A stretch of 13,636 nucleotides of DNA, taken from assembly GCF_003334315.1 (NCBI RefSeq), contig NZ_QOWR01000080.1; one strand, given 5' to 3'. A program made the translations under genes and the position numbers. The notes beneath the pieces were generated by a model, which saw only the letters and a program-made list of their open reading frames with translations, did no database searches and was not told where the DNA came from. This document shows, one piece after another, positions 9,871 through 9,889 of the stretch (position 1 is its first letter; the number at the start of each line of letters is the position of its first letter). Source of the DNA: Escherichia coli (lineage in GTDB: Bacteria > Pseudomonadota > Gammaproteobacteria > Enterobacterales > Enterobacteriaceae).

Positions 9871-9889
9871 TCTTTATACCTGTTATACC
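9871..9889 (-). promoter_or_regulatory. NanR-operator-like GGTATA repeats (minus strand reads GGTATA-ACA-GGTATA-AAG)
   Basis: Plus strand shows TATACC-TGT-TATACC. Spacing and sequence match the GGTATA-repeat NanR operator as I recall it from the nanA promoter, and NanR is known to bind in the nanC-fimB intergenic region. Confidence 0.55.

Follow-up and report, generated by a model that had tools for sequence, protein, structure and literature searches.

GGTATA repeats between nanC and fimB of an Escherichia coli strain match the known NanR operator and carry a rare third-repeat allele

Do the paired GGTATA hexamers between nanC and fimB in this strain represent the NanR operator known from E. 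coli K-12, and what can such a site still control where fimB itself is broken? The question arose from an earlier note on the 13,636-nt stretch of E. coli DNA analyzed here (the window), in which two exact GGTATA hexamers with 3-nt spacing and a degenerate third, about 420 bp upstream of nanC and about 1 kb upstream of fimB, had been read as a NanR-type operator that appeared conserved despite a frameshift in fimB. Both hexamers are present, running from 9889 to 9884 and from 9880 to 9875 on the minus strand and separated by ACA. The measured distances agree with the note, since 426 bp separate repeat 2 from the nanC ATG (9449, minus strand) and 1016 bp separate repeat 1 from the fimB ATG (10905).

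The repeats and their K-12 counterpart

The site consists of the following elements.

9884 to 9889, minus strand: NanR repeat 1, GGTATA, an exact hexamer, the same in the K-12 nanC, nanA and nanX operators
9875 to 9880, minus strand: NanR repeat 2, GGTATA, an exact hexamer, separated from repeat 1 by the 3-nt spacer ACA
9867 to 9872, minus strand: degenerate repeat 3, GATGCA, with G to A at 9871 relative to GGTGCA of K-12 nanC
9870 to 9896, minus strand: 27-bp block TTGATCTGGTATAACAGGTATAAAGaT, 26 of 27 positions in common with the K-12 nanA, nanX and nanC operators
9891 to 9894, unstranded: Dam site GATC, 1 bp off repeat 1

Read on the minus strand in the direction of nanC, positions 9896 to 9867 are TTGATC T GGTATA ACA GGTATA AA GATGCA, with the GATC starting at 9894. 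The Dam site beside the repeats is kept, within 5 bp of repeat 1. A degenerate third repeat does exist, but it is weaker than the earlier note had implied: it matches GGTATA at 3 of 6 positions, follows a 2-nt spacer, and lies mostly beyond the segment from 9871 to 9889 to which the site had been assigned. An alternative third repeat after a 3-nt spacer was rejected, as it matches at 0 of 6 positions; nanA and nanX use a 2-nt spacer.

We considered whether the hexamers might be a chance motif in AT-rich DNA with no regulatory role. Lone GGTATA hexamers would fit such a reading, as they are not significantly enriched (10 in the window versus 5.5 expected). The spaced pair GGTATANNNGGTATA, however, has one exact match in the window against a chance expectation of 0.01, and just 1 of 200 dinucleotide-preserving shuffles yielded any match. 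Furthermore, the site is orthologous to a characterized K-12 site and is conserved across E. coli and, in its nanA version, across Enterobacterales. Because of this orthology and conservation, the chance reading is effectively refuted, and we give it almost no credence.

The nanC-fimB spacer, 1455 bp in length, is collinear with that of E. coli K-12 MG1655 at 98% identity, and 5110 of the 5426 complete E. coli genomes carry it. Alignment with the characterized nanC-fimB region placed the operator at these repeats and not elsewhere. When the K-12 nanR-nanA and yjhB (nanX) upstream regions were extracted and aligned with the nanC copy, a 27-bp sequence, TTGATCTGGTATAACAGGTATAAAGGT, proved to be common to the K-12 nanA, yjhBC/nanXY and nanC operators, and the window matches it at all positions but one. 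Among 11 E. coli sampled across different backgrounds, 10 keep both repeats.

The mapping of the operator is based on published work and on sequence orthology. In 2003, El-Labany et al. reportedly described, upstream of fimB, a "region 1" with just such a sequence of 27 bp that is common to nanAT and yjhBC, and Sohanpal et al. are said to have found in 2004 that region 1 is bound by NanR and the neighboring "region 2" by NagC. The GGTATA operator is present in nanATEK-yhcH, yjhBC and nanCMS (Horne et al. 2021, PMC8012715), a genomic-SELEX peak of NanR falls in the nanC/fimB spacer (Shimada et al. 2018, PMC5934670), and at nanA, nanC and yjhB NanR binds no more than 5 bp from a GATC (Westphal et al. 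2016, PMC5155068). The work of McVicker et al. agrees as well. In view of the K-12 orthology, the 27-bp block of nanA and yjhB/nanX, and the published distance to the fimB promoter (PMC3173223), we are highly confident that the site is O_NR, the NanR operator known from the nanC-fimB spacer of E. coli, where NanR would most likely block the nanCMS promoter. The observation in the earlier note is thus confirmed, and its interpretation is supported with the minor corrections given here. The operator is already known and characterized, and its only mildly new point is the rare allele of the third repeat.

The likeness to K-12 O_NR ("region 1", between nanC (yjhA) and fimB) extends to locus, orientation, flanks, both repeats, the ACA spacer and the GATC, and the distances to nanC and fimB are equal. 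The two differ in the third repeat (GATGCA in the window versus GGTGCA), in fimB, which is a pseudogene in the window, and in the GATC of region 2, which the window has lost. The K-12 nanATEK-yhcH operator (Kalivoda 2003, Horne 2021) resembles the site in TTGATCTGGTATAACAGGTATAAAGGT (26/27), in the register of a CRP-like site and in a GATC 1 bp upstream, but it carries three exact GGTATA repeats ~59 nt from the ATG, whereas the window site has two exact repeats at 426 nt. The K-12 yjhBC (nanXY) operator shares the 27-bp block and also further similarity upstream in the nanC promoter (GTTTTGTT..TGGATTGC); it differs in having a perfect third repeat and another downstream operon. More distantly, the site can be compared with FadR-type GntR operators, since NanR belongs to the FadR/GntR family and, as a dimer, touches DNA through its winged-helix domains in a FadR-like manner (PMC8012715). 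FadR sites, however, are palindromes that hold one dimer, whereas NanR sites are direct repeats that hold two or three dimers cooperatively.

The third repeat and operator variation

Position 9871 is the single base inside the operator that differs from K-12 (C to T on the plus strand, G to A on the operator strand), such that the operator allele of the window reads …AAAGATGCACC and that of K-12 …AAAGGTGCACC. The K-12 nanC repeat, GGTGCA, is itself inexact (4/6), and nanA and nanX have GGTATA at this place. A 45-mer with the GATGCA allele was found in 18 to 20 of 5426 complete E. coli genomes, including ET76, EC6, TOE3 and RCAD0514, which are the closest relatives of the window; the K-12 60-mer is exact in 2178 genomes.

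A 19-mer core scan over one genome per GTDB species yielded 94 loci. At 87 of them, which come from many Enterobacterales genera, the core is next to nanR and precedes nanA by ~59 nt; one locus is linked to fimB, and six have no link to either nan or fim genes. Two of the six have E. coli operator contexts, namely L034 (E. coli E69, with a nanC-type flank) and L085 (nanX-type), and the other four (two Saprospira, a Bacteroidetes MAG and L095) lack an E. coli operator context. L085 is a 265-bp contig labeled 'Methylobacterium mesophilicum' and is probably E. coli contamination. The same probably holds for a 'Bacteroides sp.' MAG contig, which carries the nanC-fimB operator and a 100% identical FimB.

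In all 88 nan- or fim-linked operators the third repeat opens with GGT, and its last three bases vary. The G-to-A change of the window is at repeat position 2, and positions 2 and 3 are GT in 88 of 88; the change thus falls in the conserved half of the repeat. With G to A at 9871, the binding site of a third NanR dimer may be lost, leaving two dimers bound instead of three. An inexact third repeat does not exclude the site from the NanR operators, because two repeats suffice for binding with a KD of ~25 nM, forming only two complexes (Horne et al. 2021, PMC8012715). From those two-repeat data, the window allele would be expected to form fewer complexes but still to be bound.

A further reading is that the operator has been weakened in this lineage, with the third dimer site lost and either repression of nanCMS less tight or cooperativity lower than in K-12. 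It draws on the change from GGTGCA to GATGCA at a GT that is invariant in the linked operators, on the rarity of the allele, and on the formation of only two complexes on two-repeat DNA (Horne 2021). However, the affinity for two repeats nearly equals that for three (25 nM versus 20 to 39 nM; PMC8012715), the K-12 nanC repeat is already degenerate, and relatives bearing the allele have intact nan genes. We regard a weakened operator as possible but doubtful.

Other natural variants of the operator were seen. In E. coli ST12468, a 9-bp deletion corresponding to window positions 9881 to 9889 removes one GGTATA-plus-spacer unit, leaving one exact repeat and the degenerate one. RCAD0514 has GTTC for the GATC at 9891 to 9894 with the repeats kept, and in the 11-genome sample the operator spacer of 2013C-4974 is ATA for ACA. 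In the close relatives TOE3 and ES4, IS1 or IS5 insertions are situated inside the nanC-fimB spacer.

The putative nanCMS promoter and the distal control region of fimB

How could NanR act at this position? Two putative promoter elements and one probable neighboring protein-binding site bear on the question.

9882 to 9887, minus strand: putative nanC -10 hexamer, TATAAC, within repeat 1 and its spacer, a geometry common to nanA, nanX and nanC
9929 to 9944, minus strand: CRP-like site TGTGACGCGAATTGCA, centered 61.5 nt upstream of the end of repeat 2
9945 to 9967, unstranded, approximate: counterpart of K-12 "region 2" (NagC site O_NC1), with GATC replaced by GATA at 9954 to 9957

The nanA, nanX and nanC promoters each carry a CRP-like TGTGA-N6-T..CA whose center precedes the end of repeat 2 by 61 to 62 nt, and each has TATAAC, formed by repeat 1 and the spacer, at the would-be -10 position. 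A CRP consensus scan of the window was not significant on its own (6 matches versus 6.6 expected), and the argument for the CRP-like site is its equal register at nanA and nanX. A simple sigma-70 consensus scan called no promoter over the operator. From the common geometry we infer a weak, activator-dependent nanCMS promoter over the operator; transcription would begin near 9875, giving nanC a leader of ~425 nt. Rfam at gathering thresholds gave no match in the window, including this putative nanC leader (9450 to 9875, minus strand). Such an overlap fits the nanA footprint of NanR, which was reportedly found by Kalivoda in 2003 to cover the nanA promoter. At 9938, in the spacer of the CRP-like TGTGA-N6-TTGCA, the window has a private SNP, C versus T in K-12 and nine other sampled genomes.

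The same elements could be taken to mean that the site is mainly a core promoter with a Dam methylation element, or a site for another regulator whose half-site is similar, such as NarL, and not a NanR operator. The TATAAC inside repeat 1 does resemble a -10 hexamer, a GATC adjoins the repeats, and the NanR and NarL motifs are alike (PMC13058942). Nevertheless, such roles are compatible with NanR binding, and precisely the three operons under NanR control carry the 27-bp block. In other genera, the GATC is missing from about half of the nanA operators although the repeats persist, and no NarL heptamer pair is evident. This explanation is very improbable, and repression by NanR of a nanCMS promoter overlapping the operator is the most likely reading.

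The analysis itself establishes the sequence of the site, its orthology, its distances and the intact nan genes. The following sequence of events is proposed, with NanR binding and the effect on fimB taken from the literature. Without sialic acid, NanR dimers would occupy the tandem GGTATA repeats cooperatively and occlude RNA polymerase at the CRP-dependent nanCMS promoter; because the repeats overlap that promoter, transcription of nanC, nanM and nanS would be blocked, until Neu5Ac releases NanR and the operon is induced. Bound NanR would also shield the neighboring GATC from Dam, as in K-12. The nanR gene itself is absent from the 13,636-nt window. In K-12, fimB is activated at a distance by NanR acting with NagC and IHF, and it is NanR bound at this same operator that raises fimB expression from ~760 bp.

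The distance to fimB is consistent with this activation. The SlyA site O_SA1 at 10455 to 10466 places the fimB start at about 10634 to 10649, by which a TTGTTA-17-TATATA is found at 10599 to 10627. Relative to this predicted start, the GGTATA pair lies at about -755, in agreement with the distal site published at "around 760 bp" upstream of the promoter (PMC3173223). In the window, O_SA1 reads TTAGCCTGATAA versus TTAGCATGATAA in K-12, which is one extra mismatch to the consensus TTAGCAAGCTAA.

The segment from 9945 to 9967 is probably the NagC site, judging from the NagC binding that Sohanpal et al. reportedly found in 2004 and from the published span of -760 to -470 (PMC3173223). The distal control region of fimB comprises O_NR, O_NC1, IHF and O_NC2. 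The region-2 sequence is retained in the window, but 9938 is changed and the Dam site is GATA, as in ET76 and RCAD0514; the spacer as a whole has 2 GATC sites versus 6 in K-12. Between 10005 and 10115 there are ~25 mismatches to K-12 in 110 bp, with the rest of the spacer 98 to 99% identical; the patch is perhaps a stretch between the two NagC sites that has recombined or evolves fast.

The changes might be viewed together. A small E. coli lineage (~0.35% of complete genomes) that combines the third-repeat G to A with the loss of the region-2 GATC, plus the strain-private change in the CRP-like site, could have retuned its control of nanCMS by sialic acid and GlcNAc. We consider this idea speculative and rather unlikely; if true, it would mean, for instance, two NanR dimers instead of three and a NagC site without a Dam-protection switch.

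Target genes and surroundings of the operator

What the operator can still control depends on its target genes.

8733 to 9449, minus strand: nanC, intact, 238 aa, with 237 of 238 residues identical to K-12
7607 to 8713, minus strand: nanM, full length
6562 to 7542, minus strand: nanS, full length
10905 to 11506, plus strand: fimB pseudogene, with an A7-to-A6 frameshift at 10926 to 10931

Identities to K-12 are 97 to 99.6% across nanC, nanM and nanS. As the earlier note had reported, fimB is frameshifted: one A is gone from a run of seven, with six remaining, and the new frame stops after ~10 codons, the first downstream in-frame start giving only 162 aa. The same slip occurs in 7 of 5426 genomes from unrelated backgrounds (an MG1655 derivative, ATCC 25922 and O55:H7), and this sporadic distribution indicates either slippage that has recurred recently or a sequencing or assembly error in the homopolymer. 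The fimA gene breaks off at 13562, where one end of an IS186/IS421-type element (13563 to 13636; target GGGGCCGCAACCC) is inserted in its 3' part and replaces the last 15 codons. Thirteen complete genomes, O111:H8 strains among them, have the identical fimA::IS186-type junction, a distribution that points to an insertion hot spot. Type 1 fimbriae are probably lost in this strain through the fimB frameshift and fimA::IS186.

With fimB frameshifted and fimA truncated, only the nanCMS arm can still matter. The site is indeed kept beside a broken fimB, yet this has no special meaning: conservation of the operator is expected because the proximal nanCMS genes are intact, and no decay would be expected in any case, because the fimB lesion is too young. 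Being either recent or an assembly error, the fimB slip says nothing about selection at the operator.

Upstream of nanS, an island (497 to 6554) stands in place of the K-12 yjhR region, and the end of an IS1 copy (1 to 204) adjoins the island at 204/205. By gene names taken from the RCAD0514 annotation, the island contains DUF932, RadC, a YeeU/CbtA toxin-antitoxin pair, DUF4942, a CopG-RelE/ParE pair, an HTH regulator and an HNH endonuclease. In the closest relatives (RCAD0514), the homologous sequence runs leftward past window position 205 for at least another ~300 bp, including a hypothetical gene, and an annotated IS1 is located further left. None of the complete E. coli genomes spans the window end to end, the best covering 205 to 13562.

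This operator is the textbook link of host sialic acid with phase variation of type 1 fimbriae and with nanCMS induction. In this strain the fim system has decayed while the nan arm of the regulon has stayed intact; outside annotation, the finding is of little consequence. As natural operator variants, the third-repeat allele and the 9-bp deletion of ST12468 could serve for testing the number of NanR dimers against the strength of repression.
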